This document shows, piece by piece, positions 3,390-55,320 of a stretch of 64,000 nt of DNA (positions are counted from its first letter, which is position 1; every line of letters starts with the position of its first letter). The notes under the pieces were generated by a model, which made no database searches, was not told where the DNA came from, and was given only the letters and a program-made list of their open reading frames with translations. Origin of the DNA: Bacteroidales bacterium (GTDB taxonomy: Bacteria; Bacteroidota; Bacteroidia; Bacteroidales; UBA1402); the NCBI GenBank assembly GCA_017446025.1, contig JAFSRR010000091.1, forward strand, positions 8,661 to 72,660, given 5' to 3'. The position numbers and the translations under genes were made by a program.

Positions 3390-6300
3390 ATGAAACTACG
3401 AGATTTCAAAATGCTTGCCGGGCTGTGCGGGCTCTTCGTACTGGTCTCCACGGCCTGCGTTGATTCCCGTTACGACACGAACAAGATCTCCGGCAAGATA
3501 GCCCTTGGCGGTGACTCGATCAGCATCCCGCTGGTCAGTTCAGACAGTATCTATCTGAAAGACATCGTGAGTTTGGACGAGATAGAAATGATCTCGACCG
3601 ATGAAAACGGCTACCGCATCGAGCAGAAGGACTCCTTCCACATCGAGATGGCCGCCATCGGTGCCATTGACGTCGATGACCAGGACTACAGTCCGGATCC
3701 CATCCAGGTGGCATTCATCGATGCCTCCCAGACGCAGATCACCATCTCCGGCATCCATCAGACCAACCGTATCAACGTAGGTCTGAACAACCTGTCGGTC
3801 GATGACATCAACATCCCGGCCGTCGATTTGCAGGAAAGCTTCAACTCGAGTGTCGGCGATTTCGCCTTGACCGAGGCCCAGAAGACCTTGAGCATAAGCC
3901 CGATCGCCATTTCGCAGAGCAACATCTTCGGCAGCGCCACCCTGCCTGCCGCGCTGGAACCCTACGCCGCCTCCCTGCCACACGAGCTCATCACCCTGTA
4001 CTTCCCCGGCGGCAATGACGTCGCCGTCAACATGCAGCAGTCGATGAACTTCAGCGCCACCGTGCCCAACGGCATCACGTCGGTCGACTGGATCGCCCTG
4101 AAGAAATCCACCCCGGCCCGCCTGGGTGTCACAATGAGCATTGAAAATGCCGCCGAACTGCTGGAGAGCGGTACGGTGACCACCAACATCGCCGTCACGC
4201 CGGCAGCCCTGTTCCGTTTTGCCGACGGCACCGTGCAGCCTGATGGAAAGATCTGGCTGAACGAAAACCTGACCAAGGCCAACAATTACTCCTTCAGCAA
4301 TACCTACTACATCGACTCCCTGGTGCTGAATGCCGCCGTCGACAACGGCAGTTTCAGCATCAACAGCCAATTCAATGCCCAGGGGGTCCTCTCTGTAGGT
4401 GAGGTTCAGTACTATGCCGACAATTTCAACAACATCAGGAACATCAAACTTAAAATGGACATCACCTTCGATGACATGACCGTCCACACCATGCAGTTTG
4501 AGATTCCGGCCCGCCAGACCAATGTCAACGGTAACGCCGACATCGAATTCTCGAGCGCCCTGCCCCAGGATGTCACCAAGGTGGACAGCATCGTCACCGT
4601 CGATCCGAGCTACATTGCCATCACCCTGAAAGGTTCCAACTCGATTGCCGGCCTGAAAGGCAACATCAAGATCGACGCCCTGTCGATTGCCTTCCCCCAG
4701 GAATTTGTCTTTGACAACGTCGAGGGTCTGAACCAGGAGACCAACATCTACTCGATTGCCGACGAAGCCTTCGATCCCGTCAACGGCAAGACCATCATGC
4801 TGCCGCTCAAGCGGATTGACATGAGCGAAACGCCTGTCACCATCGACCACAATATCGTCTGGAGCAAGAAAGTCACCTACAACGGCACCCTGAGCGTGTC
4901 GGGCAAGGTCAACAGCGACAACATCCCGACCGGCCAGGCCAGCTTCAGCATGAATGTCAACTCGAACATCACCGCCGGTCCGGTCCATGTGGTAATCAAC
5001 AATATCAGCCAGCCGCTCGACGAACAGAAAGTGCCCATCAACTTCGTCTTCTCGACCGCCGATATGATCTCGGCCGTCCAGACAGCCACCATCGAAGACG
5101 GCACCTTCCTCAAGATCAAGCTGGTCAAGCCCAAGACACTGCCGCTGACCGGTAACATCGTCATCCAGTTCCCGAAGATGATGGAATTTGCCGACGATGC
5201 CCATCTGGACAAGACCAACAACCAGTATATCATCAACGGCGAACTGCCCGATGAAATTTCGCTGGAACTCAAAAAACTGGTCATCAACCAGTTCCTCGAC
5301 AACGGTATGCTGTCGGTCAAAGACTCTGTCACCATCAACGGTACGGTCGCCATCGCCGGCGGTCCGGCCAACAGCGAAGACCTGAAGCAGATCTCAACCG
5401 AGGACATGTCGATGGATATCCGTCTGGATGACATGCACATCACCGATGTCGATGCCAACATCACCGGTATCAAGGCCGAATACCGCGACTCGGCCTCCTT
5501 CTCGACGCCGATCGAGATTCCGGCTGAGATCCTGGCCATCGACAGCATCATGCTCAAGGACGGTGCCACCCTCACACTCGAGCTGAATGTCCAGAACCTG
5601 CCCAATGTGAGCGAAGACATCATCATGGACTTCCGCCTGCAGGCGCCCGACAAGTTCATGCTCCAGAGCGAGGAAGTGAACGAAATGAACTATTGGAACT
5701 TCAAGGAGAAACTGGTCAACAACCAGCCGGTGGTCAAGAGCATCCTTGTCAGGGGTATCAACCTCTCGGGCGAGAAGCTGGAGGGCACCTACAACCTGAA
5801 CGAGTTCATGAGATACAACGTCAATGTTTCGATGAACAGCGCCACCCTGCACAGCAGCGATCTGGCCGGTGAGCCCATCACCATCAAGGCAGACATCAAG
5901 CTGAAAGGCGTTCAGGTGGAAAAGGTCTATGGTCTGGTCAGTCCGACCATCGATGCCATCCACGAGGAAATCTCGCTGGAAGACTTCCCCGAACAGTTCA
6001 AGGGTGAAGACACCCGCTTGGACATCAACCCCATCCTGATGCTCAACACCTCGTACAACCTGGCCATCCCGCTTACCATCAACGGCATCATGACTCCTTA
6101 TTATGGAGAGATTCCCAACATGACCAAGGCCCAGAACATGGAACTGGCCCTGGAAGCCGGTTCGCCTGAGGCACCTGCCGTCAACAACTTCTGGATTTCC
6201 GCCACCGACGAAGGCAAGCCCGACGACTACACCTTTGTCAAGGTTGACATCAACAAGCTGTTCGAAACGATCCCCGACAAGATCACCATGGACATGGAAG

Positions 6301-6854
6301 CCCATACCAACATCGATGTCCAGCATCAGGTTGACCTGGGTGCCGACTATGCCGCCGACATCAAGTATCACATGCTCATCCCGCTGGCCTTCGGTGAAAA
6401 CCTGAACATCACCTACAAGGACACCCTGATGATCGACCTCAACCTCGGAGACGAGGATGATGACAAGGACAGCCAGAAGGAAGAGAAGAAGGTCACCGAC
6501 TACCTGGGTGAAAGCATCCAGATCATCGGTATGATTGAAAACTCCATTCCGCTGAATCTGACAGGTTCGCTCATCCCCATCGACGAGGAGAAAGACCCCA
6601 TCGCCGGTATCGAGCCCGTTGCCTTTGAAATCAGGGCCGGCAAGGCCGATGGCTCCGCCACCACCTCGCCCATCACCATTGCCTTCAAGAACGACAGCCA
6701 CCAGTTCGACCGCCTGGCCGGATTCATCATGGAATTCAAGGTCAGCTCGGACGCCACCGTGGCCGGTACCTCCATCAAACCGGACAATTTCCTGAAAGCA
6801 AGATTGTTCTTGCGGATAGTCGGTGGTATCATCATTGATGCAGACGATTTTTAA
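3390..6854 (+). CDS. Large (1154 aa) predicted surface lipoprotein of unknown function
   Basis: Signal peptide plus lipobox (MKLRDFKMLAGLCGLFVLVSTAC). The body is long and rich in N/D/T/I/V, suggesting beta structure, with no enzymatic motif I recognise. There is an acidic/lysine patch (DEDDDKDSQKEEKK) near the C-terminus. Confidence 0.7.
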   Translation: MKLRDFKMLAGLCGLFVLVSTACVDSRYDTNKISGKIALGGDSISIPLVSSDSIYLKDIVSLDEIEMISTDENGYRIEQKDSFHIEMAAIGAIDVDDQDYSPDPIQVAFIDASQTQITISGIHQTNRINVGLNNLSVDDINIPAVDLQESFNSSVGDFALTEAQKTLSISPIAISQSNIFGSATLPAALEPYAASLPHELITLYFPGGNDVAVNMQQSMNFSATVPNGITSVDWIALKKSTPARLGVTMSIENAAELLESGTVTTNIAVTPAALFRFADGTVQPDGKIWLNENLTKANNYSFSNTYYIDSLVLNAAVDNGSFSINSQFNAQGVLSVGEVQYYADNFNNIRNIKLKMDITFDDMTVHTMQFEIPARQTNVNGNADIEFSSALPQDVTKVDSIVTVDPSYIAITLKGSNSIAGLKGNIKIDALSIAFPQEFVFDNVEGLNQETNIYSIADEAFDPVNGKTIMLPLKRIDMSETPVTIDHNIVWSKKVTYNGTLSVSGKVNSDNIPTGQASFSMNVNSNITAGPVHVVINNISQPLDEQKVPINFVFSTADMISAVQTATIEDGTFLKIKLVKPKTLPLTGNIVIQFPKMMEFADDAHLDKTNNQYIINGELPDEISLELKKLVINQFLDNGMLSVKDSVTINGTVAIAGGPANSEDLKQISTEDMSMDIRLDDMHITDVDANITGIKAEYRDSASFSTPIEIPAEILAIDSIMLKDGATLTLELNVQNLPNVSEDIIMDFRLQAPDKFMLQSEEVNEMNYWNFKEKLVNNQPVVKSILVRGINLSGEKLEGTYNLNEFMRYNVNVSMNSATLHSSDLAGEPITIKADIKLKGVQVEKVYGLVSPTIDAIHEEISLEDFPEQFKGEDTRLDINPILMLNTSYNLAIPLTINGIMTPYYGEIPNMTKAQNMELALEAGSPEAPAVNNFWISATDEGKPDDYTFVKVDINKLFETIPDKITMDMEAHTNIDVQHQVDLGADYAADIKYHMLIPLAFGENLNITYKDTLMIDLNLGDEDDDKDSQKEEKKVTDYLGESIQIIGMIENSIPLNLTGSLIPIDEEKDPIAGIEPVAFEIRAGKADGSATTSPITIAFKNDSHQFDRLAGFIMEFKVSSDATVAGTSIKPDNFLKARLFLRIVGGIIIDADDF

Positions 6855-6879
6855 TGCTAACGCCTAAAGAGAAAAGATT

Positions 6880-8568
6880 ATGAAAACTACATTCTATAAA
6901 TCCTTGATCCTTGGCTTGAGCTTCCTGAGTTGCCTGACGTTGTCGGCCCAGTACAACAAGACCAGCTATTTCATGAAAGGCTCGACCACCAAGCAGCTGA
7001 TGAACCCTGCCCTGAACTCGGGCAGAGCCTACCTCGACCTGCCCATCCTGGGCGGCATCGATCTTGGTACCTCCTCCAACATGGGCGTTACCACCTTCTT
7101 CTTCCCTGATGAAGAGAACGACCAACTGCTCACCTTCCTGCATCCCGATGTCTCGGCCGACCAGTTCCTGGACGGCCTGGCCGACAACAACTTCCTCGAG
7201 ATGAACAGCCGCTTCGCCCTGTTCGGCTTCGGAGCCAACACCAAGCACGGCTACCTGTCGTTCAACATGGACTTCAAGGTAGACGGCGGTATGAACATTC
7301 CCAAATCGTTCTTCGCCTTTTTGAAGAAAGGTATGGACAACGGTACCCGCACCACCTATGATATCCGCGACCTGAAGTTCTACGGCGAAGGTTATCTGGA
7401 AACCGGCATCGGCTATTCGATCGACCTGCTCGACAACTTGAGCGTCGGTCTGCGCCTGAAAGGCCTGCTCGGTGCGAGCACCCTCAACGGCGGTATCGAT
7501 CAGATGCTCGTCGACATGACGCCCGAAGAGTGGACCTTCACGACCAAGGCCAGCCTTTCGACCAACGCTCCTGTCAACTTCACATACTCCGAATCGGGTC
7601 CGAACGGCTACGTGAACGGGGGCAATCCCGCACTGGGCAAAATCAAGGACGCCATCAGCGCGGGTTACGGCATCGACTTCGGTGTGGCTTATTCGCCTAT
7701 CAAGGACCTGGTCCTCTCGGCCGCTGTGACCGACCTGGGCGGTATCAAGTGGAACAACATGCTCGTCCTGAAGTCGGCCGGTGAAGTCAAGTATGCCGGT
7801 ATCAACAACCTGAACATCGGCGATGACAACAGCAACACCAATCAGGAAACCGAGGAACAGCTCGAAGAACTGGTCGATGACATGAAAGAAATCATCCAGT
7901 TCCGTGAAGACGGCACCCTGCCCAGCGAATTCCACCGCCTGACTGCCAGCACCGTCATCGGTGCCGAATACAGTGCCTGGAAAAACCGTGTCAGCGCCGG
8001 CTTGCTCTACACCACCGACTACAACCGCTTCGACAACTATTCGGAGATGATGTTCGTGGCCAATATCCGTCCAGTCGATCTGGTACAGCTGTCGGCCAGC
8101 TACACCTTCTACTCCGAGTATGCCAAAGGTCTGGGTGTATCGCTCGCCCTGTTCAACACCCTGTTTATCGCCTGGGAAAGAACCCTGCTGAACGTCACCC
8201 CCGACTACATGCCCATCGATCCTCTGACGACCAGCATCCACGTTGGGTTGCACATTCCGTTGAGCGGCAACAAGAAGATGAAACACAGTGCCATCAACGA
8301 CCGCTCTGCCGAAGTCTTCCAGGCAGCTGTCGAGGCCATGGAAAAAGTAGAGGTCTGCGGCGTGGTGCTCAATGCCGAGGGTGAACCCATCAAGGATGCC
8401 AACGTCTATGCCGAAGGCTACAGCGATTTCCACACCATGACCGATGCCAACGGTGCCTACTCGCTGACCGTGCCCAAGGGTGCCCGTCTGAGATTCTCGG
8501 CGCTTTCCTACAAGCCCCAGACCCTCAAGACCAAAGGCGACAAGCTGGACGTCCGTCTGAAACACTAA
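6880..8568 (+). CDS. Outer-membrane beta-barrel protein, PorP/SprF/TraF-like (DUF5723-like), with a C-terminal CarboxypepD_reg-like domain
   Basis: Signal peptide ending ...LSAQ. The N-terminal YNKTSYFMKG...LMNPAL motif resembles PorP/SprF-type barrels, and the body is Gly/aromatic-rich with alternating beta-strand character. The last ~75 aa (VCGVVLNAEGEPIKDANVYAEGYSDFHTMTDANGAYSLTVPKGARLRFSALSYKPQTL) look like a carboxypeptidase-regulatory-like fold. Confidence 0.6.
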   Translation: MKTTFYKSLILGLSFLSCLTLSAQYNKTSYFMKGSTTKQLMNPALNSGRAYLDLPILGGIDLGTSSNMGVTTFFFPDEENDQLLTFLHPDVSADQFLDGLADNNFLEMNSRFALFGFGANTKHGYLSFNMDFKVDGGMNIPKSFFAFLKKGMDNGTRTTYDIRDLKFYGEGYLETGIGYSIDLLDNLSVGLRLKGLLGASTLNGGIDQMLVDMTPEEWTFTTKASLSTNAPVNFTYSESGPNGYVNGGNPALGKIKDAISAGYGIDFGVAYSPIKDLVLSAAVTDLGGIKWNNMLVLKSAGEVKYAGINNLNIGDDNSNTNQETEEQLEELVDDMKEIIQFREDGTLPSEFHRLTASTVIGAEYSAWKNRVSAGLLYTTDYNRFDNYSEMMFVANIRPVDLVQLSASYTFYSEYAKGLGVSLALFNTLFIAWERTLLNVTPDYMPIDPLTTSIHVGLHIPLSGNKKMKHSAINDRSAEVFQAAVEAMEKVEVCGVVLNAEGEPIKDANVYAEGYSDFHTMTDANGAYSLTVPKGARLRFSALSYKPQTLKTKGDKLDVRLKH

Positions 8569-12365: not shown

Positions 12366-15300
12366 TTATCTAAGCATGACTTTCCGGGCTTCGTCCAGGC
12401 CGCTGCCCTGGAGACGGACCACTACCACCCCCTGGTACTGAGGCAGGCTGATGCTGGTCGTCGGCCCGTAGAAGCGGTGTCGGCCCAGCAGCCGGCCCGA
12501 CAAATCGGTCAGACTGAGGCTGAAGGCTTCTCCAGTGGAAGCGCCGGAGACTGAAACCAGTACCCGGCCACCGGCCGATTGCCACAACCGGACGCGGCAG
12601 CCTCCCTCTTCGGGCATACGTTCCATACGGATGGCCACTGCTTGACTGGTCTCGAAGCAACCCAGATCGGGGGCCTCGCCTTCGTAGGTGATGCCGACGG
12701 CCACCCGGCTCTCGCCCTCATAGGGGCTGACGGGCGTACCCTTGTCGATGAGGCGGGTGTTACCCTCAGTGGGGAACATGAAGGCCACCTCGGGCAACTG
12801 GCCATCGGCGGCGCGGTCGGCCAGGGTCTCCTGCCAGTCGATGCTGCGAAAATCGGCCGGCAGACAGTTCATATCGGAGGTGACAAAGGTGCCGTTGACC
12901 TGCCAGACGCCATAGGCGGATTTCTTCATATCGGAAACGCCGTCGCTGATGGCTACGCAGTTGGTCAGGCGGATTTCGTGGTTGGCGGCCACGGCCTCGT
13001 AGAAGCGGTAGGTGTAATTGCCCTTGGAACTGCTCTTGGCCGAGTAGCCGCTGCAGTTGTTCAGTATCATCGAACCGCGGTTGTGGTTCTGGTCGAAGTC
13101 TTTGTTGAGGTTTTCAAAAGCCAGGCAGCGGTTCAGGATGACGTTGTTGCGACCGTATTCACTGCCCAGTTTGAAGCCGTTGCCATTGCCGCTGCTGGCC
13201 TGGCCGTTTTCCAGGAAGCCGTTGTGGAAGGCCCAGCAATATTCGAAGGTGGTGGTGATGTCGTCGGGGAAGCCGCCGTCGGTCTTGATGAAGCCGTCCC
13301 AGCCGTCGTCGCTGTTGTCCCAGGCGCGGCAGCCGTAGAAATAGTTGCCCGTGCCATGGGAGATCTTCACGGCGAAACCGTCGGCGTCACCGTTGTCGGG
13401 ATCACAGTTGAGATAGGCGTCGCAGTTGATCACCACATTGTTTTCGGCCAGGTTTTTCATCTGCAGGCCCGTGTCACGGTTGCGGTAGAAGCGGCAGTTC
13501 TCCACCACATTGTGATGGCCCAGGTGGGTGCTGTCCTTGACGGAGGCATAGTTGCCGCCCGAAGGCTTGTTGCGCTCGATCAGCAGGCCGTTGTCGCCCG
13601 CCCCGCAAATGTCGATGCCATAGATATGCCAGTAGCTGCCCGTCAGGCGCATGCCCTGGTTGTTGTCGCCCAAAGCCATGGCCGAGAAATCCAGGATGGC
13701 CCGGCCGCCACGGGCAAACAGGGCAATCATGCCGCTCTGCTGACGACCCACCGCCCCGGCGTTGAGCCGCTCGGTATAGCGGTAGGTGCCGGCCTCCATG
13801 TAGATAGTGTCGCCGGCCACCACCCGGTCGATGGCTTTCTGTACGTTGTAATAAGGATGCTCCAGGCTGCCGTCGGCTGTGGCATCGTTGCCCTCGGGGG
13901 AGACATAATAGACATGGTGGGCATAGGTGGGCAGCACCTTGACACCGGTGGTCCAGCTTCGCAGCTCACCAAAGCTCATGCCAGCCTCGTTGACGGCATA
14001 GGTCTTGAAATAGTAGGTGGTTTCGGGATTCAAACCGATAATGGCCGTGAAGGTGTTGCCCACCAGTCGGGCCACCACCTTTTGGCTGGAGACTTCGGGA
14101 TGGTTGCCGAGCCCGAAGCAGACCCCCACCTCGGAGGGTACGCTGCCGCCGTCGTCGGTGACCGTACCGCTGAGCTTGACATAGCACAGGCGTTCGTCGT
14201 CGCCATCTTCCAGGGCGGCCACTTCACCGCTCACGACCGTCGGGGCAATGGGAGGCTCGGTGGTGAACTGCGCGATCTCGCCCAGACCGACCCCCGACAA
14301 ACTGATGACAAAGGCCCGGTAGCGGATGGTCCTGCCTGCCGGCAGACCGTTCAAAGTGACGGTGAAATCGGCTTCACTGGCGGCAACTGTCTGATAGGAG
14401 TAGTCAGGATCGGCTTCGGCGGCCCAACAGATACCCCAGGCCAGGGGCGTCTTGTCGCCGGGGGCAACCAATTGGCCGCTCACACGGGCCGTGGTACGGG
14501 TCACCTCCGTGGCTGCGCCGGTGGTGACCGTGCCGGCTGTGCCGACGGGATAGGCGGTGATGCAAATATTGTCGATATCGGCATCCTTGCTCTCTTCGTT
14601 GGCCAGTTTGATGCGGTTCACCCGCGTGTCGGCAATCAGCACCTCATTGTAAGTGTCCGTGAGGATATTGGCGGCCAACTGCCAGGTCTGGCCCTGGTCG
14701 TACGAGGTATAGAGATTCAGTTCCTTCTCGGTGCGGCCTTCGTTGAACGACACCTTGACCACCCCTTGCGAAAGGACCGGCGATATGACATACGAAGTGC
14801 TCTTGAGCATGCGCAGGGCACAATGCGTGCCGTCGGGGATGTAATCGACATTGGTCGAGCACCAAGCATTTTTGTAGCGCCACTCGCCCTGGCCTTCGAC
14901 CGGGAAGGCGACCTCGCTGGAAGCATCGGCATTGGTGGCGGGATACTGGCTCTTGTCTTCAAAATCCTGCGTGAAATAGGGAATCCGCCAAGGCGTGGTG
15001 ACCTCGCTGCTGTCGGCCGTGGAGCCGTCGTAACGGGTCACGATCAGGTTGTCGATGTAGACCTGGCCATTGGAGGTGGTGCTCAGGCGGACATAGCGCG
15101 CCGAGGCATCATTGATCTCGACCACATGCCTGATCCAGCTCTGGGTATTGGCCTTGAAATTCTCCACCAGGGTCCAGTTGGTGCCGTCGCTGGACACTTC
15201 CACATTGGCCTCGCGGTTCTGCACCCAGGCATAATAGAAGAGCGTACCGGCGCCGTCGGCCAGCCGGGGGCTGACAAAACCGGCCTTGTTGCTCAGCTTG

Positions 15301-15521
15301 AGGCTGTAAGTGCCTTGATAAGCCTGCTCGGTGCTCTGGATGTTCTTGTTGGTGGTCCAGGTGCCGGTCGCAGCCGTTACCGTGGTGGCTGCCGTGCTCC
15401 AGGCCTCCTGCTCGAAAGTTTCCATGCGATAGGTGTAGTCCTGGGCGGACAAAGCCGTACTGAGCAGGCAGACAATGGCTGCCAAGGTGATTTTCATCGG
15501 GCGGATGGTTTTCATAATCAT
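12366..15521 (-). CDS. Secreted multidomain right-handed beta-helix protein (pectate-lyase PL9-like) with a T9SS C-terminal sorting domain
   Basis: The likely start is MIMKTIRPMKITLAAIVCLLSTALSAQ; the ORF track extends upstream to 15617. There are two N-terminal CBM-like modules. The beta-helix core carries NQGMRLTG...GDNGLLIE...NRDTGLQMK...DADGFAVK...NSDDGWDGF...GNGNGFKLG repeats. The C-terminal ~80 aa (...LSLTDLSGRLLGRHRFYGPTTSISLPQYQGVVVVRLQG...KVMLR) resemble a Por_Secre_tail CTD. Confidence 0.75.
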   Translation of the reverse strand: MIMKTIRPMKITLAAIVCLLSTALSAQDYTYRMETFEQEAWSTAATTVTAATGTWTTNKNIQSTEQAYQGTYSLKLSNKAGFVSPRLADGAGTLFYYAWVQNREANVEVSSDGTNWTLVENFKANTQSWIRHVVEINDASARYVRLSTTSNGQVYIDNLIVTRYDGSTADSSEVTTPWRIPYFTQDFEDKSQYPATNADASSEVAFPVEGQGEWRYKNAWCSTNVDYIPDGTHCALRMLKSTSYVISPVLSQGVVKVSFNEGRTEKELNLYTSYDQGQTWQLAANILTDTYNEVLIADTRVNRIKLANEESKDADIDNICITAYPVGTAGTVTTGAATEVTRTTARVSGQLVAPGDKTPLAWGICWAAEADPDYSYQTVAASEADFTVTLNGLPAGRTIRYRAFVISLSGVGLGEIAQFTTEPPIAPTVVSGEVAALEDGDDERLCYVKLSGTVTDDGGSVPSEVGVCFGLGNHPEVSSQKVVARLVGNTFTAIIGLNPETTYYFKTYAVNEAGMSFGELRSWTTGVKVLPTYAHHVYYVSPEGNDATADGSLEHPYYNVQKAIDRVVAGDTIYMEAGTYRYTERLNAGAVGRQQSGMIALFARGGRAILDFSAMALGDNNQGMRLTGSYWHIYGIDICGAGDNGLLIERNKPSGGNYASVKDSTHLGHHNVVENCRFYRNRDTGLQMKNLAENNVVINCDAYLNCDPDNGDADGFAVKISHGTGNYFYGCRAWDNSDDGWDGFIKTDGGFPDDITTTFEYCWAFHNGFLENGQASSGNGNGFKLGSEYGRNNVILNRCLAFENLNKDFDQNHNRGSMILNNCSGYSAKSSSKGNYTYRFYEAVAANHEIRLTNCVAISDGVSDMKKSAYGVWQVNGTFVTSDMNCLPADFRSIDWQETLADRAADGQLPEVAFMFPTEGNTRLIDKGTPVSPYEGESRVAVGITYEGEAPDLGCFETSQAVAIRMERMPEEGGCRVRLWQSAGGRVLVSVSGASTGEAFSLSLTDLSGRLLGRHRFYGPTTSISLPQYQGVVVVRLQGSGLDEARKVMLR

Positions 15522-37520: not shown

Positions 37521-37594
37521 CGGTGCGTACGGGACTCGAACCCGTGACCCCATGCGTGACAGGCATGTATTCTAACCAGCTGAACTAACGCACC
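37521..37594 (-). tRNA. tRNA-Asp (anticodon GTC)
   Basis: The minus strand reads GGTGCGTTAGTTCAGCTGGTTAGAATACATGCCTGTCACGCATGGGGTCACGGGTTCGAGTCCCGTACGCACCG. It folds by hand into a cloverleaf: 7-bp acceptor, anticodon loop CTGTCAC, and T-loop TTCGAGT. Confidence 0.9.
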
Positions 37595-37612
37595 CTTTCT
37601 GGTTTGCGGCTG

Positions 37613-37620
37613 CAAAGATA
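37613..37620 (-). promoter_or_regulatory. -7 box (TATCTTTG on the minus strand) about 20 nt upstream of tRNA-Asp
   Basis: The plus strand reads caaagata. A second TATTTTTG match lies about 25 nt further upstream on the minus strand. Confidence 0.4.
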
Positions 37621-37663
37621 AATACTGTTTTTGGAATGGCAAAAATAATGGTGAATTTTTTTT

Positions 37664-37747
37664 CTCCTCCGGCAAGAGGCTGTCGGACGATCCTCACCGA
37701 CAAGAGGCTGTCGGACGATTCTCCTCCGACAAGAGGCTGTCGGATTC
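37664..37747. repeat. Three tandem 28-29-nt repeats, each forming a TCCGACA/TGTCGGA hairpin
   Basis: ctcctccggcaagaggctgtcggacgat / cctcaccgacaagaggctgtcggacgat(t) / ctcctccgacaagaggctgtcggattc. The core CCGACAAGAGGC equals the 3' end of the neighbouring tRNA-Thr but sits on the opposite strand. Confidence 0.75.
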
Positions 37748-37808
37748 CCGCCCCGATGCTTCGCCATCGGGGCGGAGGTCCGACTTGCCTGCCGCAGGCA
37801 GGCAAACG

Positions 37809-37873
37809 CAAACAAACAGCCTCAGACTACTTTCGAAAGCGAGCTTTCGACGCTGTCTGAGGCTGTTTGTTTG
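37809..37873 (-). other. Perfect 19-bp stem-loop directly abutting the 3' end of tRNA-Thr
   Basis: CAAACAAACAGCCTCAGAC (37809-37827) pairs with GTCTGAGGCTGTTTGTTTG (37855-37873). The 27-nt loop contains the palindrome CTTTCGAAAG. There is no U-run after it on the minus strand. Confidence 0.6.
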
Positions 37874-37947
37874 AGCCTCTTGTCGGATTCGAACCAACGA
37901 CCCCGAGATTACAAATCACGTGCTCTGGCCAACTGAGCTAAAGAGGC
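37874..37947 (-). tRNA. tRNA-Thr (anticodon TGT)
   Basis: The minus strand reads GCCTCTTTAGCTCAGTTGGCCAGAGCACGTGATTTGTAATCTCGGGGTCGTTGGTTCGAATCCGACAAGAGGCT. Acceptor GCCTCTT/AAGAGGC, anticodon loop TTTGTAA, T-loop TTCGAAT. Confidence 0.9.
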
Positions 37948-37949
37948 AG

Positions 37950-38050
37950 GTGGGAAAGCGATCTATATCGCGCCGCTACAACCAAACTACCCTTGCTGCC
38001 GTCAAGCCCTGGGGGGATTCGCAGGGAGCTGGCCGTATAGGACTTTCCCG
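37950..38050 (-). ncRNA. ffs: Candidate signal recognition particle RNA (small bacterial 4.5S-type)
   Basis: The ~100-nt minus-strand transcript folds by hand into one long imperfect hairpin. GGGAAAG at the 5' end pairs with CTTTCCC at the 3' end, and CTATA pairs with TATAG. The apical region CCAGG-GCU[UGAC]GGC-AGCA-AGGGUAG resembles the conserved SRP helix-8 AGG/AGCA symmetric loop. A -7 box lies immediately upstream. The apical loop is not a GNRA tetraloop, so the call is tentative. Confidence 0.4.
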
Positions 38051-38054
38051 GCGG

Positions 38055-38062
38055 CAAAGGTA
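38055..38062 (-). promoter_or_regulatory. -7 box (TACCTTTG on the minus strand) for the candidate SRP RNA / tRNA-Thr transcript
   Basis: The plus strand reads caaaggta, a few nt upstream of the first base of the predicted hairpin RNA. Confidence 0.45.
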
Positions 38063-48697: not shown

Positions 48698-49006
48698 CTA
48701 TGCTTTTTCAACTTCGAAGAGATTGAGGAAACCGGTCATCATGAAGACCTTGCGGATATCCTCGTTCATATTGCGGATGATCACCCTGCCGCCTCTGGCC
48801 GATGCCGCCTTGCGAATGGTCAGGAAAATCCTGAGACCGGAACTGCTGATATACTCCATCTGTGAGCAATCCAGCACGACGGTCAAATCGGCATGGTCGA
48901 TCAGGGGTTGTACCTGACGCGATACCTCCAGGGAGGCAGGAGTGTCCAGACGGCCGATGAACTGGGCCGTTATCACCTTCTCTACTTGATTGATTTTTAC
49001 TTCCAT
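48698..49006 (-). CDS. STAS-domain anti-sigma-factor antagonist-like protein (SpoIIAA/RsbV type)
   Basis: 102 aa: ...VVLDCSQMEYISSSGLRIFLTIRKAA...GGRVIIRNMNEDIRKVFMMTGFLNLFEV. The conserved phosphorylatable Ser context (YISSSGL) is present. Confidence 0.85.
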   Translation of the reverse strand: MEVKINQVEKVITAQFIGRLDTPASLEVSRQVQPLIDHADLTVVLDCSQMEYISSSGLRIFLTIRKAASARGGRVIIRNMNEDIRKVFMMTGFLNLFEVEKA

Positions 49007-49007
49007 A

Positions 49008-51206
49008 TTATTGAATCCTTTTGGTCATTGACAAAATGTTCTTGGCTTCGGCCCGTTCGTAACGGACATCGTCCATAATATTGCGCACCAGATAGATACC
49101 CAGTCCACCGATGGCCCGTTCCTCGACACCCAAAGTGGTATCGACCTCCGGTGCCTGAGTCGGATCGAAGGGCTTGCCGCTGTCGGTGATGATGAAATCC
49201 AGGCGGTCGTGACGGATGATGGCCTCAATGTCGACCAGTCCGTCGGATCCTTCGGGATAGGCATACATAATCACGTTGGAAACCGCTTCTTCGAGTGCCA
49301 GGTTCAGGCTCATGGCCAGTGACTGGTCCAAGTGGATTTCATCGGCAATGGCCTCTATGAAACCAGCCAACTGCGGTATCTGCTGAATATCGTTGTGCAG
49401 GATCAGATGACGTTCCGCCCTGTCGGGCAACGACTCGTTCATATAGCGGAGATAAAGCATTGTCAAATCATCGCTCTGCGGCGCGTCACCGACAAATTCC
49501 ATCACAGACTGCGAAACAGCCTTGAGTTGGGATTCGGCCAATGAATCGCTCCGAAGCAGGGCTATCAGCCGGTCGTCACCGAAGAGTTCATGCCCGGCGT
49601 TCTCGGCCTCGGTCAGGCCGTCGGTGTAGCAGAACAGTCCGTCCTGGCATGCCAGGTCTGTTTCCTGCTCCTGGAAAGACGTGCCCGGCATGACACCCAG
49701 CGGCAGGTTGGACACAACGGGCAATTCACGCACTCCCTGGCCTGTCACCAGCAAGGGAGCGTTGTGACCGGCGTTGCAATAGCGCAGATGGCCGTTGCCC
49801 AGATCCAGCACACCGGTGAAGAAAGTGACAAACATGTTGCTTTCGTTCATGTCGGACATGGAGTCGTTCATGATGGTCACGATGCGTTGCGGGCTCTTCT
49901 CGTGGGCCGAAACCGTACGGAACAGACGGCGCGTGACGGCCATCACCAGAGAAGCAGGCACACCCTTGCCCGACACATCGCCGATGCAGAAATAGAGTTT
50001 TTCCTCGCGGATATAGAAATCATAGAGGTCGCCGCCCACCTCCTTGGCCGGGACGATGGAGGCATACATATCGATATCCTTGCGTTCGGGGAAGGGCGGG
50101 AAAATCTTGGGAATCATCGACATCTGTATACCGCGACCGATTTTCAGCTCGCTTTCCATACGCTCCTTGTTCTCGGACAGTTTTTTGAACTTCAGCTGAC
50201 TCTTGATTGAAGAACGCAGGATAAGTATCAGCATGAGGATACCCACCAGCTGGAGTACTTTGACCATCATGCCGATACGACGGATACCGCCGTAAATCTC
50301 GCTGTCGGGGATGACAATGGACATCGACCAGCCGGTCTTCTCTACCGGGGCATAGAAGACATAATTGGTCGTTTTCCGGTACTTCAGGCTGAGATTGCCC
50401 GTCTCACCAGCCATCATCGACCGGTTGAGCTCGTCGAAAACGTCCCCACCTTCCATGTCGGCGGCCACTTCCTGGGCCCGTCGCGACATGATGAGCGACT
50501 CGACCGGGCAGACCATGATCTGGCCCGTACGGCTGATCATCATGCTGAAAGCGTTGGGATAGACTTCCACATTGCCTACCAGATCGGTGAGCCAGTCGAG
50601 CGAGATGTCGGCCGTCAATACGGCGGCCAGCCGGCCTTTGTAGTCCCACAAGGGCATCGAATAGGTGGTCATCAGGATATCACCGCCCCCTTCGTCCACA
50701 TAGGGTTCCGACCAATAGCCGGCCTGCAGTTCCAAGGGCTTGACGAACCATTCCTGGGAAGGGTAATCGTAGGCCTCGGTGGCCAGTTGGCGGTAATGCA
50801 CTTCATTCTCACCGGGCATCTGGTAGGAATAGGGCGAGAAAAGCGGCCGGGAAGGAAGATAGCCGGGCACCAGGGCGATGGTCGAACCGACCACCACGGG
50901 GTTTTCGCACACAATGCGCCGGGTCACTGCCACCATGCTATCGGGATAGCCCAGACTCCACTGGGCAATCCAGACACTGTTTCGAACTGCCGTCTCGGCT
51001 TCGTCTATCACCGCAGATATTTTCAAGCGCGTGGATTCCAACTGGCTTTGCGCCCTGAGGGAAGCCTCCTCGCGGATGCCTTTCTGAGAAAAATAATACT
51101 GGACCAGCGCTGTCGCCTCCAGGGTGACGATGGCCACCACGATAAGCAGCAGACCGGTTTTGGAAGCCTGACGGAGGAAAGATTTGTTTTCTATTCCCTT
51201 CTTCAT
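49008..51206 (-). CDS. Membrane sensor fusion: periplasmic Cache-like domain, PP2C (SpoIIE) phosphatase, and RsbW/SpoIIAB-type HATPase serine kinase
   Basis: TM1 (LLLIVVAIVTLEATALV), a ~270-aa extracytoplasmic region with YWSEPYVDEGGGDILMTTYSMPLWD (Cache-like), and TM2 (VLQLVGILMLILIL). The PP2C core shows VGGDLYDF...FCIGDVSGKGVPASL...FFTGVLD...NAGHN...TDGLTEA...QSDDLTML. The C-terminal LALEEAVSNVIMYAY...ITDSGKPFDP...GGLGIYLVRNIMD is a GHKL kinase domain. Confidence 0.85.
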   Translation of the reverse strand: MKKGIENKSFLRQASKTGLLLIVVAIVTLEATALVQYYFSQKGIREEASLRAQSQLESTRLKISAVIDEAETAVRNSVWIAQWSLGYPDSMVAVTRRIVCENPVVVGSTIALVPGYLPSRPLFSPYSYQMPGENEVHYRQLATEAYDYPSQEWFVKPLELQAGYWSEPYVDEGGGDILMTTYSMPLWDYKGRLAAVLTADISLDWLTDLVGNVEVYPNAFSMMISRTGQIMVCPVESLIMSRRAQEVAADMEGGDVFDELNRSMMAGETGNLSLKYRKTTNYVFYAPVEKTGWSMSIVIPDSEIYGGIRRIGMMVKVLQLVGILMLILILRSSIKSQLKFKKLSENKERMESELKIGRGIQMSMIPKIFPPFPERKDIDMYASIVPAKEVGGDLYDFYIREEKLYFCIGDVSGKGVPASLVMAVTRRLFRTVSAHEKSPQRIVTIMNDSMSDMNESNMFVTFFTGVLDLGNGHLRYCNAGHNAPLLVTGQGVRELPVVSNLPLGVMPGTSFQEQETDLACQDGLFCYTDGLTEAENAGHELFGDDRLIALLRSDSLAESQLKAVSQSVMEFVGDAPQSDDLTMLYLRYMNESLPDRAERHLILHNDIQQIPQLAGFIEAIADEIHLDQSLAMSLNLALEEAVSNVIMYAYPEGSDGLVDIEAIIRHDRLDFIITDSGKPFDPTQAPEVDTTLGVEERAIGGLGIYLVRNIMDDVRYERAEAKNILSMTKRIQ

Positions 51207-52033
51207 ATAATAGTATTTAAAGCTACCCGGAGTTCCGGCATCGGACGACGGGTATCACGTTCTACCATGATGGTTTTCAGACCGGCATAGGGCCGGACTT
51301 CTTCTTCTATGTCCTTTAGCGGACGGCCAGGGCCGAAATACTCGGCGGCAAAAGCCTCCCAGAAAGAGGCAGCCGTCGCATTGTCCATATGGAATGCTTC
51401 GCGAGTGTAATCGGGGGTATTGAGCCGGCCGGTCATATAGACCATGCCGATATCGAAAAGCGGACAACCGTGGCAAAAGTCGCCCAGATCGATAAAATAG
51501 CGCTTGTCTCCGGCAAAGACGGCATTGCCGAAATGCAAGTCGCCGTGCAGGGCGGTCTCTGCCTCGGGCACTTCGTCGATGAAGCGCAGCAATTTGTCTT
51601 TTTCCCCAACGGTGAAAAAAGGATTGTCGACCAGCATCCGGGCATAGCGGTCTTTTTCGGATTCAAACTGGGAGGTATCGACCCGGGTGGCATGCAGTTG
51701 ACGGCACATGGCAGCAAATGAGGCGGCATATTCACCCATCCGGGAGGGGTCTTCGCTGACCGCCCGGGCAAAAGATTTTTTGCCGATTATCCGCTGGAAG
51801 CGTATGCCGTAGCGGCCGTCCGCTGTCACCACATAGTTGCCCGGCTCAGGGGTGGAAATGCCGGCATCATAGACTTTGCGCGCCATCAATAGCTCGTTGA
51901 GCGGCTGATGTGTCCGGTCCGGGAAATAGAGTTTGAGCATGATCCCCGGGGCGGAGCGATGGTAGTAGCTCTCGCCGTTGGATCCTGCACCGGCCAGCAC
52001 ATAATCGTTGATGTCTATCCGCTCGGCTTCCAT
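51203..52033 (-). CDS. APH-fold phosphotransferase (aminoglycoside/choline-kinase-like small-molecule kinase family)
   Basis: MEAERIDINDYVLAGAGSNGESYY..., the catalytic loop LHGDLHFGNAVF, and the metal-binding FIDLGDF. The stop overlaps the downstream ATG (ATGA). The start is taken at the ATG at 52033. Confidence 0.7.
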   Translation of the reverse strand: MEAERIDINDYVLAGAGSNGESYYHRSAPGIMLKLYFPDRTHQPLNELLMARKVYDAGISTPEPGNYVVTADGRYGIRFQRIIGKKSFARAVSEDPSRMGEYAASFAAMCRQLHATRVDTSQFESEKDRYARMLVDNPFFTVGEKDKLLRFIDEVPEAETALHGDLHFGNAVFAGDKRYFIDLGDFCHGCPLFDIGMVYMTGRLNTPDYTREAFHMDNATAASFWEAFAAEYFGPGRPLKDIEEEVRPYAGLKTIMVERDTRRPMPELRVALNTII

Positions 52034-52035
52034 AA

Positions 52036-52605
52036 CTAGTCTCGTTTGCCAAAAACCTCGTCGATCAGGCGCTGGAACTCCTGAAATGCAAAAGTGTCCT
52101 CCAATTCGCGCAATGAGTCGGCCAGGCCGCGGTAATGCCATTCATGCTCAGCTTTGTCCCTGACATGGAAAATCTGCCACACATTGTCGCCCTGCAACGC
52201 ATAGTCGCGGGCGATGGCCCGCATATTGGACAGTTTGTCGCCCAGGGCCACCATCTTGACTTCACGGGAAGCCTTGGCCAGCTTGTCGATGGCGGCCTGC
52301 TTGCGCAGGTGCCAGTTTTCCCAATAGTTGCAGTTCTCCACCACAATGTCGCTTTCGGCGACCACCAGATCGGCAATGCGTTCGCCAAAGACAACGGACA
52401 ACTCTTCTTCTGTGACGCGGGTATCCTCCAACACGTCGTGCAGGGCGGCCGCGGCCAACAGTTCCTGGTCGGATGTCATGGTCGAGACAATCGACACGGC
52501 CTCCATGGGATGGACGATGTAGGGGAAACCTTTGCCCCGGCGCTCAGCGCCGGAGTGGGCCCGGACCGCAAAAACGATGGCCAGATCCAGCAATTTTGTA
52601 TTCAT
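52036..52605 (-). CDS. HD-domain small alarmone hydrolase (SpoT/Mesh1-type (p)ppGpp hydrolase domain only)
   Basis: ...AHSGAERRGKGFPYIVHPMEAVSIVS...LLAAAALHDVLEDT...VVAESD...KMVALGDKLSNMR are canonical RelA/SpoT hydrolase-domain motifs (HP...V, HDxxEDT). Position 52617 is a GTG, so the ATG at 52605 is preferred. Confidence 0.8.
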   Translation of the reverse strand: MNTKLLDLAIVFAVRAHSGAERRGKGFPYIVHPMEAVSIVSTMTSDQELLAAAALHDVLEDTRVTEEELSVVFGERIADLVVAESDIVVENCNYWENWHLRKQAAIDKLAKASREVKMVALGDKLSNMRAIARDYALQGDNVWQIFHVRDKAEHEWHYRGLADSLRELEDTFAFQEFQRLIDEVFGKRD

Positions 52606-52636
52606 CTTCTTTTTCACCGCGATATAGTTGTATCAG

Positions 52637-53701
52637 CTATTCGGAAGCATGCATGAAAGGCAGGTCCTTGGTCTGTTCGACCAGAAAAGCCGCCATCTCC
52701 TCATTCATTTCCGAAGGTCCGTTGAGGATGTCCAGCATATATTTCAAGCCGCCCCGGCCGCCGCCGTTGCGCAGGATGAAGGCCGTGCACAGGTGCTGGG
52801 GGCCGATCGACGAAGAAACGATGTCCAGGTCGGTCAGGCCGATCTGGTAGCAGGCAATCTGATAGGCTGCTTCCGAGTTGTCCTTGATCAATTTGGCGAT
52901 ATCACCCAGGGTCTTACAGCCCAATCCTTTGAATACAGGCAGATAGCCCATCAGTGAAACCTCTTGTATTTCGGCCTGGTTGACCGCAGCGATACGCTTG
53001 TTGAGTTTGGCAAAGGGATTCAGCGACAGATAATTGCGGAAGGAATCGCCATCGAGCAGCACTTCGTCCAGATTGCCCGATGCCACCAGGGCCTGCACCC
53101 GGCGGCGATAGTCGTTGAGTTCAGTACGGATACGGCTGAACTGTTCGTCGGCCATCTCCAGCATACCGGCCAGGCGGCTCATGTTGCGCAGGTACTCGCG
53201 CGGCACTTCGACACCCGATTTATAGCCTGTGTCGTGGTTAAGATTGGCCCAGGCATGCTGCAGGACCGTACGCATCTGGATTTCGAAACGATAGGGGAAA
53301 CCCTTCTTGCGACAGATATAGTGCAGCGACATGTAGCCGAAAGAATCGATCTCGTGGATTTTTCGCTTGTCGACCGACTCATCCCAATCCACTTCGAACA
53401 GACGTTCGACGGCCGAAGCCACCTTGTCGACATCGTCGATGTAGAATGTAATCACACGCAATCCGAGGATGTCGGTGATATCGGCCAGGCTGCTGTATTT
53501 GCTACCCTTCAACTCCAATTTGCCGGCCAGGGAGCCTTCGGCCTTGACCCGTGCCTCGACCGAAGCCACAATGATGCCGGCCCCATCGAGCGTGGAGCGC
53601 AACAGGTCTAGCACTTCGTTTTTAACACTCTCAAACTGAGGAAGATGCTGACGATATTCTTCCAGAATTGCCTCGCAATGGGCGTCCAGTGTCCTTGTCA
53701 T
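52637..53701 (-). CDS. Small alarmone synthetase (RelA/SpoT-type nucleotide pyrophosphokinase domain) with a ~150-aa C-terminal extension of unknown function
   Basis: Synthetase motifs RVKAEGSLAGKLELKG, DILGLRVITFY, GYMSLHYI and EIQMRTVLQHAWANLNHD are present. Residues ~205-354 match no motif I recognise. Position 53707 is a TTG; an ATG lies at 53701. Confidence 0.85.
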   Translation of the reverse strand: MTRTLDAHCEAILEEYRQHLPQFESVKNEVLDLLRSTLDGAGIIVASVEARVKAEGSLAGKLELKGSKYSSLADITDILGLRVITFYIDDVDKVASAVERLFEVDWDESVDKRKIHEIDSFGYMSLHYICRKKGFPYRFEIQMRTVLQHAWANLNHDTGYKSGVEVPREYLRNMSRLAGMLEMADEQFSRIRTELNDYRRRVQALVASGNLDEVLLDGDSFRNYLSLNPFAKLNKRIAAVNQAEIQEVSLMGYLPVFKGLGCKTLGDIAKLIKDNSEAAYQIACYQIGLTDLDIVSSSIGPQHLCTAFILRNGGGRGGLKYMLDILNGPSEMNEEMAAFLVEQTKDLPFMHASE

Positions 53702-53724: not shown

Positions 53725-53732
53725 CAAAGCTA
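53725..53732 (-). promoter_or_regulatory. -7 box (TAGCTTTG on the minus strand) at the head of the SAS operon
   Basis: The plus strand reads caaagcta, about 24 nt upstream of the ATG at 53701. It lies within a near-palindrome TTAGCTTGCAAAGCTAA. Confidence 0.45.
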
Positions 53733-53774
53733 ATGTTTTTCTCCCATCCGTCAAAGCCGAACAAAAGGATTTCG

Positions 53775-53782
53775 TACATTTG
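53775..53782 (+). promoter_or_regulatory. -7 box TACATTTG for the divergent HD-domain gene
   Basis: TAnnTTTG match 35 nt upstream of the ATG at 53817. Confidence 0.45.
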
Positions 53783-53816
53783 CAGACCGGTCGCGTCGCA
53801 GCCGCCGGCACAGCTT

Positions 53817-54797
53817 ATGAATCTCTGGTCTGTCTATCACCCTGAAATCCCCGGTTTTGTCCGGGAGATTGCCGCCACCCCGCCCTTGCGGCGGCTCATG
53901 GAGGTGGGCATGAACTGCGGCTGTGAATATACCTCCTTCTCCCGTTTTGCCCATCTGGAGCCTTATTCGCGCTACGACCACAGCCTGGGCTGTGCACTGA
54001 TAGTCTGGCATTTCAGCGGCGATAAACGACAAGCGGCAGCTGCCTTGCTGCACGATATCGCCACGCCGGCCTTTGCCCATGTGATCGATTTCCTCAACGG
54101 CGACCACGACCGGCAGGAATCGACCGAAGCGGGTGCCGCCGACATCATCCAGGCCTGCGCCGAGCTCATGGAAGTACTCGGCCGCCACGGCCTCAGCCTC
54201 GACGAGGTCTGCGACTACCATCGCTACCCCCTGGCCGACAACGACACGCCCCGGCTCTCGTCCGACCGCCTGGAATACTCGCTGGGCAACATCGTCAACT
54301 ACCGGATAGCGACCCGCCAGGAAGCGGCCTCCTGGTACGGGCACCTGGTGACCGGCCTCAACGAAGAGGGCATCGAAGAGCTCATGTTTGACGACACAGC
54401 CGCCGCCCTGGCTTTCGCCTCGGGCGCCCTCAAGGCCTCGCGTATCTACGTAGCCGACGAAGACCGTTTCGCCATGCAGATGTTGGCCGAACTGCTCAAA
54501 AAACACATCGGGCGGGGTGTGCTGTCTAAAGAAGACCTCTACACCACCGAACCGCAAGTCATCGGCCTGCTGGAGAAAGACGCCCGGGCGGCCGCCGACT
54601 GGCAGCGCTTCCGGGCCTACCGGCGCATGGTCCCTGCCGCCGGACAGCCCCAGGCCCGACGGATTTCGGCCAAGAAACGACACATCGACCCCTATGTCAA
54701 GGGAAAGGGGCGTCTCTCTGTTATCTCACCCTTCTATTCCGCCCAACTGCGCGACTTCCTGGCACTCGATTTCGGCCAGCCCGTTTGCGGGGAATAA
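53817..54797 (+). CDS. HD-domain metal-dependent phosphohydrolase (function unknown)
   Basis: ...YSRYDHSLGCALIVWHF...AAALLHDIATPAFAHVIDF... shows the H...HD...D pattern of the HD superfamily. The start is chosen at the ATG at 53817, downstream of the -7 box. Confidence 0.7.
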   Translation: MNLWSVYHPEIPGFVREIAATPPLRRLMEVGMNCGCEYTSFSRFAHLEPYSRYDHSLGCALIVWHFSGDKRQAAAALLHDIATPAFAHVIDFLNGDHDRQESTEAGAADIIQACAELMEVLGRHGLSLDEVCDYHRYPLADNDTPRLSSDRLEYSLGNIVNYRIATRQEAASWYGHLVTGLNEEGIEELMFDDTAAALAFASGALKASRIYVADEDRFAMQMLAELLKKHIGRGVLSKEDLYTTEPQVIGLLEKDARAAADWQRFRAYRRMVPAAGQPQARRISAKKRHIDPYVKGKGRLSVISPFYSAQLRDFLALDFGQPVCGE

Positions 54798-54812: not shown

Positions 54813-54850
54813 CATAAAAAAAAGAGAGCCGCCTTGAGGGCAGCTCTCTT
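54813..54850 (-). terminator. Rho-independent terminator for the small OM protein gene. It probably also stops the convergent HD gene.
   Basis: The minus strand reads AAGAGAGCTGCC-ctcaa-GGCGGCTCTCTT followed by TTTTTTTTATG. Confidence 0.65.
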
Positions 54851-54876: not shown

Positions 54877-55320
54877 TTAGAAGCGATAGCGGACACCCAG
54901 GCCGAAGCTGGCAGCAGCAAAGCCACCATCCAGGAAATAGAAAGTAGGTCTCCAGTCGAGCGACAGGGTCAGAGGAATCTGGAAGTTGTATTCCATGCCG
55001 ATCATGCCGGAAGCACCTACATCCAGACCGGACTTGGTCGTACCGTTGTCGTCATAGTTGTAGAAACCGACGGTGGCACCGGGACCTGCATAGAAATTGA
55101 AATCACCTTCGCTGGCGAAAACAAAATTGTAGATACCCGTGGCATAGAAACCATGGTTCAGGAAGAGACCTCCGTCAAATTCCAGGAAATTCTCACCCAT
55201 CGAGTGCTGATAAGATACTTCTGCACCATAACCGATACGAAGACCGATGGCACGGGGCTGGGCCATCATCACAGCTGTCAGACCGAAAACGGCGACAAGA
55301 ACAAGTAATGCTTTTTTCAT
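54877..55320 (-). CDS. Small outer-membrane beta-barrel protein (OmpW/OmpA-barrel-like, 8-stranded type)
   Basis: Signal peptide MKKALLVLVAVFGLTAVMMAQ, alternating Gly/Tyr/Phe strands, and a C-terminal ...FGLGVRYRF. Confidence 0.7.
   Translation of the reverse strand: MKKALLVLVAVFGLTAVMMAQPRAIGLRIGYGAEVSYQHSMGENFLEFDGGLFLNHGFYATGIYNFVFASEGDFNFYAGPGATVGFYNYDDNGTTKSGLDVGASGMIGMEYNFQIPLTLSLDWRPTFYFLDGGFAAASFGLGVRYRF

Follow-up and report, generated by a model that had tools for sequence, protein, structure and literature searches.

A Bacteroidales small alarmone synthetase with an undescribed C-terminal domain, encoded in a conserved cluster with partner-switching genes

The small alarmone synthetases (SASs) that most resemble the one considered here are RelQ and RelP (SAS1 and SAS2 of Firmicutes), single-domain enzymes of ~210 to 230 amino acids (aa) that are encoded alone. 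In Treponema denticola, the housekeeping synthetase Tde-SAS (DsRel) joins a RelQ/RelP-like domain to a C-terminal TPR domain that acts as a brake, and it works with a separate, stand-alone small alarmone hydrolase (SAH), Tde-SAH (PMC10434055). Among toxic and defensive SASs, FaRel is encoded beside an SAH, ATfaRel (PMC7229694), and CapRel carries a C-terminal regulatory extension (PMC9712102). Partner switching, in turn, is known to control the synthesis of a different messenger in Pseudomonas aeruginosa, where a small protein, toggled between two states by a kinase and a PP2C phosphatase, controls a diguanylate cyclase (SiaD in SiaABCD, PMC8457831; HsbD in HsbR/HsbA-HsbD, PMC5085249). Here we describe a 354-aa SAS with a C-terminal domain of 150 aa, encoded with a hydrolase and with partner-switching genes in a stretch of 64,000 nucleotides (nt) from a Bacteroidales bacterium (lineage UBA1402; assembly GCA_017446025.1, contig JAFSRR010000091.1, positions 8,661 to 72,660 of the forward strand), hereafter called the window.

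A five-gene cluster with the parts of a partner switch

An earlier note on the window had likened the SAS-SAH pair to the toxic SASs (toxSASs) and their hydrolase antitoxins or to CapRel-type defense, and had offered as an alternative that the two enzymes produce and remove alarmone under the control of the C-terminal extension. It overlooked that the pair runs straight into three further conserved genes on the same strand, encoding an APH-fold kinase, a membrane sensor with phosphatase and kinase domains, and a STAS protein. With moderate confidence, we read SAS and SAH as enzymes that form the output of a partner-switching module under the control of a sensor, rather than as a toxin-antitoxin pair. 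The features are as follows, with coordinates given as positions within the window and (-) denoting the minus strand.

52637..53701 (-), SAS, an open reading frame (ORF) of 354 aa with its ATG at 53701
53090..53701 (-), catalytic domain of SAS, aa 1-204, RelQ/RelP-like by Pfam (RelA_SpoT), a family profile (A1, described below) and Foldseek
52637..53089 (-), C-terminal domain of SAS, aa 205-354 plus the stop codon, family-specific, proposed as a regulatory or receiver domain
52036..52617 (-), SAH, 193 aa, HD_4 (E = 1.4e-19), with a GTG start and an alternative ATG at 52605
51203..52033 (-), APH-fold kinase, 276 aa, TIGR02172 (1.2e-67) and Pfam APH (6.5e-15)
49008..51206 (-), membrane sensor, 732 aa, dCache, PP2C (SpoIIE) and RsbW-like kinase (HATPase_c_2)
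48698..49006 (-), STAS protein, 102 aa, anti-sigma-antagonist-like (STAS, 2.2e-15)
53725..53755 (-), candidate Bacteroidetes-type promoter read from the sequence, TTTG at 53755-53752 and TAGCTTTG at 53732-53725

In the order SAS, SAH, APH kinase, sensor and STAS protein, the genes follow one another closely: 19 nt separate SAS from SAH, the APH gene starts 2 nt past the SAH stop, the start of the sensor gene overlaps the APH stop as ATGA, and the STAS gene starts 1 nt past the sensor stop. The candidate promoter ends ~24 nt upstream of the SAS ATG and fits TTTG / TAnnTTTG, the Bacteroides promoter consensus; a generic scan for promoters and terminators, built on sigma-70 and not made for Bacteroides-type promoters, gave counts no higher than those of shuffled controls. 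Rfam detected neither a riboswitch nor any other RNA close to the operon.

Between them, the last two proteins are predicted to provide what a partner-switching system needs in the way of a phosphatase, a kinase and a STAS protein. Pfam places SpoIIE (1.3e-49), HATPase_c_2 (2.6e-26) and dCache/PDC (3.7e-26) domains on the 732-aa protein, in which two transmembrane helices (aa 14-39 and 310-338) flank the Cache domain. The PP2C motifs with their catalytic aspartates (GDVSGKG409, TDG528 and DDLT579) are present, as are the N-box, DSGKPF and GGLG motifs of the RsbW-like domain, which spans aa 598-732, and PDB matches include Mycobacterium tuberculosis Rv1364c (5e-14) and RsbW (6M36, 1e-10). Like Rv1364c, the protein carries phosphatase and RsbW-like kinase on one polypeptide and has a STAS partner; proteins of the Rv1364c type differ in their input domains and in that the output proposed here is not a sigma factor. 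Vibrio SypE, in which phosphatase and RsbW-like kinase are also fused and the STAS partner is SypA, offers a further likeness. The STAS protein of the window aligns to SpoIIAA and RsbV, and its Ser55 falls at the position of the phosphorylated serine in the SSGL motif of SpoIIAA. Catalytic motifs are intact in the phosphatase, kinase, STAS, SAS and SAH alike. No sigma-factor gene was found in the window cluster or in relatives with inspected gene calls, and SAS therefore takes the position that the output of a partner switch would have. The logic would be that of SiaABCD and HsbR/HsbA-HsbD, with the difference that their output is a GGDEF protein making cyclic di-GMP, whereas the putative interaction here would involve a synthetase from the family of RelA/SpoT homologs (RSH) together with a hydrolase.

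The gene after SAS encodes a stand-alone HD hydrolase, as the earlier note had it, and its best solved relatives are SAH structures: Lmo0812 (4YF1, 1e-20) and the SAHs 7QOE and 7QOC (1e-17 to 9e-18), with Mesh1 a weaker match (5e-10). Its catalytic motifs HP36, HD60, ED64 and DKLSN127 (DKxxN type) are present. The E-values by which SAS and SAH are assigned to their predicted families are far beyond chance. The APH kinase has the motifs HGDLHFGN and DLGD; its match to TCAD9, a ternary-complex conflict system domain, is weak and sub-threshold (E = 0.0019; 17.9 bits, where the cut-off is 40), and that to methylthioribose kinase in the PDB is marginal (E = 0.024).

Catalytic and C-terminal domains of the synthetase

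The translated SAS holds the synthetase motifs that had been noticed in it (RVKAEGSLAGKL, DILGLRVITFY, GYMSLHYI and EIQMRTVLQHAWANLNHD), and the reported lack of a hydrolase, TGS or ACT domain is borne out by Pfam, which returns no HD, TGS or ACT domain and gives RelA_SpoT as the sole match (aa 51-163, E = 4e-19). Across 16 diverse, distant family members, R51, K53, S57, K61, D77, G80, R82, Y123, S125, H127, E140, Q142, H156, Y160 and K161 are invariant. Because this set, from R51 to Q142, covers the ATP-binding, Mg-binding, G-loop and catalytic residues, the enzyme is probably active. Searched singly, the sequence matches only RelQ and RelP structures in the PDB (~1e-11); its NCBIfam matches, all sub-threshold, are to the RelQ-type YjbM model, at 48 bits and thus below the equivalog cut-off of 320. 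The AlphaFold model of the full-length protein (pLDDT 88.2, pTM 0.62) superposes on the RelQ/RelP structures 5DEC, 6FGK and 6EX0 with a Foldseek TM-score of ~0.8. Length, the extra domain and the company of hydrolase and partner-switching genes set the window SAS apart from these enzymes.

The same comparisons bear on the toxin interpretation, under which the pair would be a type IV toxin-antitoxin or abortive infection system, with SAS poisoning the cell through (pp)pApp synthesis or tRNA pyrophosphorylation and SAH neutralizing it. An SAS with an intact active site adjoins an SAH in FaRel-ATfaRel as well (PMC7229694), and the additional C-terminal domain gives the protein a superficial likeness to CapRel. 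The authors of the toxSAS work report no clear sequence signature that separates tRNA-targeting SASs from alarmone synthetases (10.1101/2021.04.30.441581), so that sequence alone leaves room for a tRNA-targeting activity. PADLOC also returns a match to PDC-S33 (3.7e-15); we rejected it as proof of membership in a defense family because it is partial and confined to the catalytic domain (aa 11-152). No PADLOC family is matched over the full length of SAS, and the SAH, APH and sensor proteins have no match of any kind. Family resemblance points the other way. A profile built from the 16 distant members (A1), used as a proxy for classification with RSH subfamily hidden Markov models, scores 73 to 86 bits with RelQ and RelP (E = 2.5e-19 to 3e-23) versus 29 bits with CapRel (7ZTB) and 17 bits with FaRel2, and does not match Tas1. 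In structure, the whole SAS model reaches a TM-score of only 0.37 to 0.38 with CapRel 7ZTB (root mean square deviation ~10).

The C-terminal extension of ~150 aa (aa ~205-354, nt 52640-53089), described earlier as uncharacterized, indeed has no sequence match in Pfam, NCBIfam or the PDB. When residues ~199-354 were searched against 1.84 billion representative proteins, only 94 representative clusters matched at E <= 1e-3. Ten of the longer matches were scanned with Pfam, and in eight the domain follows RelA_SpoT in proteins mostly of ~350 aa; the domain thus appears to be private to this SAS family. Of the other two, P0176 has no Pfam match and P0125, which joins the domain to an amidohydrolase fragment, was set aside as a probable assembly or gene-call chimera, as was P0124 (a fusion to a penicillin-binding-protein dimerization fragment). 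P0206, a repetitive protein of 1685 aa, was set aside as a chance low-complexity match. In one locus of a second clade described below (L103), an amidohydrolase gene lies two genes upstream of the sensor gene, a pairing to compare with the chimera-like P0125.

Structure prediction followed by a Foldseek search, which the earlier note had suggested for the extension, gave a confident model of the isolated domain (pLDDT 92.2, pTM 0.87), mostly helical with a few short strands, and no fold match in the PDB or BFVD (best E 2.8 to 2.9, TM-score <= 0.31). The SAS has no Pfam TPR at E <= 0.01, and the C-terminal model matches no TPR structure. The window SAS therefore differs from Tde-SAS, which it resembles as a two-domain RelQ/RelP-like synthetase working alongside a stand-alone SAH and in which restraint by the C-terminal domain is known (PMC10434055); the adjacency of the two genes within a switch operon is a second difference. 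The pseudo-zinc-finger antitoxin/sensor domain of CapRel is not encountered either, the isolated domain having no PDB match. As modeled, the domain is neither CapRel-like nor TPR-like, a further point against the toxin interpretation.

Linkage across Bacteroidales and in a second clade

The SAS family is large (>7,900 clusters at 90% identity), and its top 120 clusters share 74 to 90% identity with the window SAS. An exact look-up of the window SAS in public assemblies returned nothing, and relatives served for the comparison. A scan of one genome per species yielded 80 SAS loci with 58 to 90% SAS identity, mostly from rumen, all but one in metagenome-assembled genomes titled as belonging to the order Bacteroidales (one contig is labeled Ruminococcus). 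Partners were sought in all 80 with tblastn and the window proteins, and counted in those 47 loci where SAS is flanked on each side by 6 kb or more. SAH is found in 45 of these 47, and the APH kinase, the PP2C-HATPase protein and the STAS protein in 46 each; all four accompany SAS in 44. The genes occur in 12 different orders (for example, PP2C-STAS-SAS-APH-SAH, APH-PP2C-STAS-SAS-SAH and SAS-PP2C-STAS-SAH-APH), and partner genes are never on the opposite strand. Among rumen and gut species of Bacteroidales, the cluster has thus been kept through repeated reshuffling, and so persistent a linkage is better explained by function than by common descent alone.

SAH lies directly downstream of SAS in 57 of the 80 loci, and yet it is dispensable in several lineages that keep SAS. 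It is missing, with SAS directly beside APH, from L004-006, L047, L053, L055 and L058; by another count, it is absent despite room for one in 5 of the 80 loci and also from L004-006. A Prevotella relative (53% SAS identity) has its SAS alone among unrelated genes. Since a toxin would not be expected to persist without its antitoxin, these losses speak against the toxin interpretation. So do the size of the conserved unit, which comprises five genes rather than two, and its vertical conservation as a syntenic chromosomal operon in 80 species-level genomes, without the patchy, mobile-element-linked distribution typical of such modules. The setting of the window cluster among transporters and metabolic genes likewise suggests housekeeping. 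FaRel and CapRel thus share with the window locus the adjacent SAH and the C-terminal extension, respectively, and differ from it in profile, in the unrelated C-terminal domain and in this signaling-operon context. We consider a toxSAS-SAH or CapRel-like defense module very unlikely, and the earlier note's first suggestion is not supported. Its second, in which the C-terminal extension gates a regulated source and sink of alarmone, agrees in outline with what we found, although it passed over the partner-switching genes that most likely provide the gating.

The APH kinase is a conserved accessory specific to Bacteroidales. A cytidylate-kinase-like gene (PF13189) that the window lacks lies between or beside SAS and SAH in 6 of the 47 well-flanked loci; it is seen at 9077-9709 in L001 and also in L023, L029, L030, L054, L056, L059 and others. 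This gene and the APH kinase are a hint that the pathway may include additional steps of nucleotide phosphorylation.

Outside this group, a second clade shows a similar association. The SAS of L103 is 40% identical to the window SAS over its full length, C-terminal domain included, and members of the second-clade cluster are annotated as Lachnospiraceae or Candidatus Colinaster equi. Genes for a sensor-SpoIIE-HATPase_c_2 protein, STAS, SAS and HD_4 occur together in L103, L105, L107, L108, L110, L138 and others, while L092 and L093 have HD_4, SAS and STAS together with SpoIIE and HATPase_c_2 a few kb away. The sensor domain in this clade is 5TMR-LYT, compared with dCache in the window, the hydrolase is only weakly related to the window SAH (43% over 61 residues), and the APH kinase is absent. 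The recurring core is therefore a PP2C phosphatase, an RsbW-like kinase, a STAS protein, an SAS with the C-terminal domain, and a hydrolase, with input and accessories that vary. L107 additionally has a dCache-HAMP-GGDEF diguanylate cyclase gene (5457-7028), two genes upstream of SAS, and a phage-type integrase gene (14329-15519), which lies downstream of the sensor gene at ~1.6 kb; the former could mark a second-messenger neighborhood and the latter a mobile element close by.

Two kinds of gene fusion join parts of this core. In P0130, P0215 and P0216 (521 aa, mutually 81 to 82% identical), an N-terminal HATPase_c_2 domain precedes SAS and its C-terminal domain; the P0130 and P0215 fusions were confirmed on separate contigs of one assembly, and their HATPase_c_2 portion shares 49% identity with the RsbW-like domain in the window sensor (E = 2e-38). 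P0437, in the second-clade locus L094, is an SAS::HD_4 fusion followed by STAS and HATPase_c_2 genes. Both types provide guilt-by-fusion evidence that points to direct functional coupling.

It could be argued instead that SAS and SAH are ordinary housekeeping enzymes that merely share an operon with a partner switch whose real output, such as a sigma factor or a transporter, is encoded elsewhere, and that the C-terminal domain serves oligomerization or allostery. Many family members are indeed solo genes, the catalytic domain is RelQ/RelP-like, and partner-switching systems often have distal outputs. This explanation would leave unaccounted for the linkage kept through 12 gene orders in Bacteroidales, its recurrence in a distant clade with another sensor and another hydrolase lineage, and the fusions of SAS to an RsbW-like domain and to a hydrolase. 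Nor is any other output gene conserved in the cluster, since the gene after STAS varies. We regard this explanation as improbable, though clearly less so than the toxin interpretation.

Around the window cluster lie genes for a Na+/H+ exchanger, CobW, an alanine symporter, a Na/Pi cotransporter, phosphofructokinase and a P-type ATPase. The Na+/H+ exchanger, which follows STAS, was rejected as a STAS partner because the gene in that position varies among relatives. An ORF of 354 aa divergent from SAS, at 53733-54797(+), has weak HD matches that fall short of the Pfam cut-off (E = 0.002) and matches nothing in NCBIfam. Its orthologues occur only in the closest relatives, L001-003 (69 to 71% identity), and for this reason it was rejected as a sixth component; as they are called at 326 aa, the true start may be at ~53817. 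Beyond it, a strong terminator-like hairpin at 54822-54850(-), with 12 pairs and then a T-run, follows an outer-membrane beta-barrel gene (54877-55320(-)), whose transcript would therefore be a separate one, upstream of the SAS operon region. At some distance, at 37521-38056(-), the window encodes a Bacteroidales small signal recognition particle RNA (111.5 bits), adjoining tRNA-Thr and with tRNA-Asp close by; this RNA confirms the Bacteroidales origin of the window.

A proposed switch with an alarmone synthetase as output

We propose that the module would operate as follows. Binding of an extracytoplasmic ligand to the dCache domain would tip the 732-aa protein toward either its PP2C phosphatase or its RsbW-like kinase activity, and the balance of the two would decide how far the STAS protein is phosphorylated, probably at Ser55. 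The RsbW-like domain would hold SAS through its C-terminal domain, and unphosphorylated STAS would compete for the RsbW-like domain. SAS, once freed, would move pyrophosphate from ATP to GDP or GTP and so make (p)ppGpp, and the co-expressed SAH would clear the alarmone; the removal of the product by SAH would give a signal that is sharp and can be reversed. The switch could also work in the opposite direction. Taken as a whole, this would be the first partner-switching system with a RelA/SpoT-family output, comprising a Cache or 5TMR-LYT sensor, a STAS protein, capture of SAS by the RsbW-like domain through a receiver domain without a known fold, and reset by a hydrolase. We put forward this complete scheme tentatively, at slightly less than even chances and with less confidence than the assignment of SAS and SAH as the output.

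That the product would be (p)ppGpp is suggested only by the resemblance to RelQ and RelP, and the same switch might instead gate a growth-arrest effector, in which SAS, by making (p)ppApp or by modifying a target such as tRNA, acts as a regulated dormancy switch. The missing signature between tRNA-targeting SASs and alarmone synthetases (10.1101/2021.04.30.441581) applies here too, Tde-SAS also makes ppApp, at low rates (PMC10434055), and the APH-fold kinase and the cytidylate-kinase-like gene are hints of unusual nucleotide chemistry. The closest relatives in sequence and structure are nevertheless all (p)ppGpp synthetases, and the SAH is dispensable in some species. A growth-arrest effector therefore seems to us distinctly unlikely, its chances lying between those of the housekeeping and the toxin explanations.

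Several observations weigh against a partner-switched synthetase. Many SAS family members stand alone, 14 of the 28 metagenome loci with enough flanking sequence have no switch gene nearby, and the one Prevotella relative examined has neither hydrolase nor switch genes within 8 kb of SAS; either the synthetase can do without the switch, then, or the switch genes of those genomes lie in another place. Co-location could mean co-expression and not direct regulation. The fusion sequences are few: HATPase::SAS is represented by three clusters, of which two come from a single assembly, and SAS::HD by one. The Lachnospiraceae label comes from the annotation of cluster members and not directly from the loci that carry the switch. 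We infer the interaction with SAS, the phosphorylation of STAS and the alarmone product, and the C-terminal domain as a docking site purely so; with a full-length pTM of 0.62, the packing of the two SAS domains is not reliably read from the model.

The literature searched contained no paper with both "partner-switching" and "small alarmone synthetase", and nothing describing a linkage between an SAS and a partner switch. A survey of RSH proteins from 2011 appears to list the SASs of Bacteroidia only as unplaced "divRel", judging by a column count in a flattened table, and the family may already bear an RSH subfamily name. A known enzyme family and a known signaling logic are thus combined in a way that we have not found described, with a C-terminal domain that is itself undescribed and would define a new protein domain. 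If the toxin interpretation were right, the locus would give one more toxSAS; the evidence points to a signaling module instead.

It is an open question in the field for what reason bacteria have additional SASs and by what means the enzymes are activated. SASs are known to be controlled by transcriptional induction, by allostery through pppGpp or RNA, and by toxin-antitoxin pairing. If the partner-switched synthetase proposed here is real, post-translational input from a partner switch would be a fourth mode of control. It would tie an extracytoplasmic sensor to alarmone levels in Bacteroidales, and possibly in Lachnospiraceae. Bacteroidales dominate rumen and gut communities, and in these abundant anaerobes extracellular chemical cues would then feed directly into (p)ppGpp-type signaling, independently of the ribosome.

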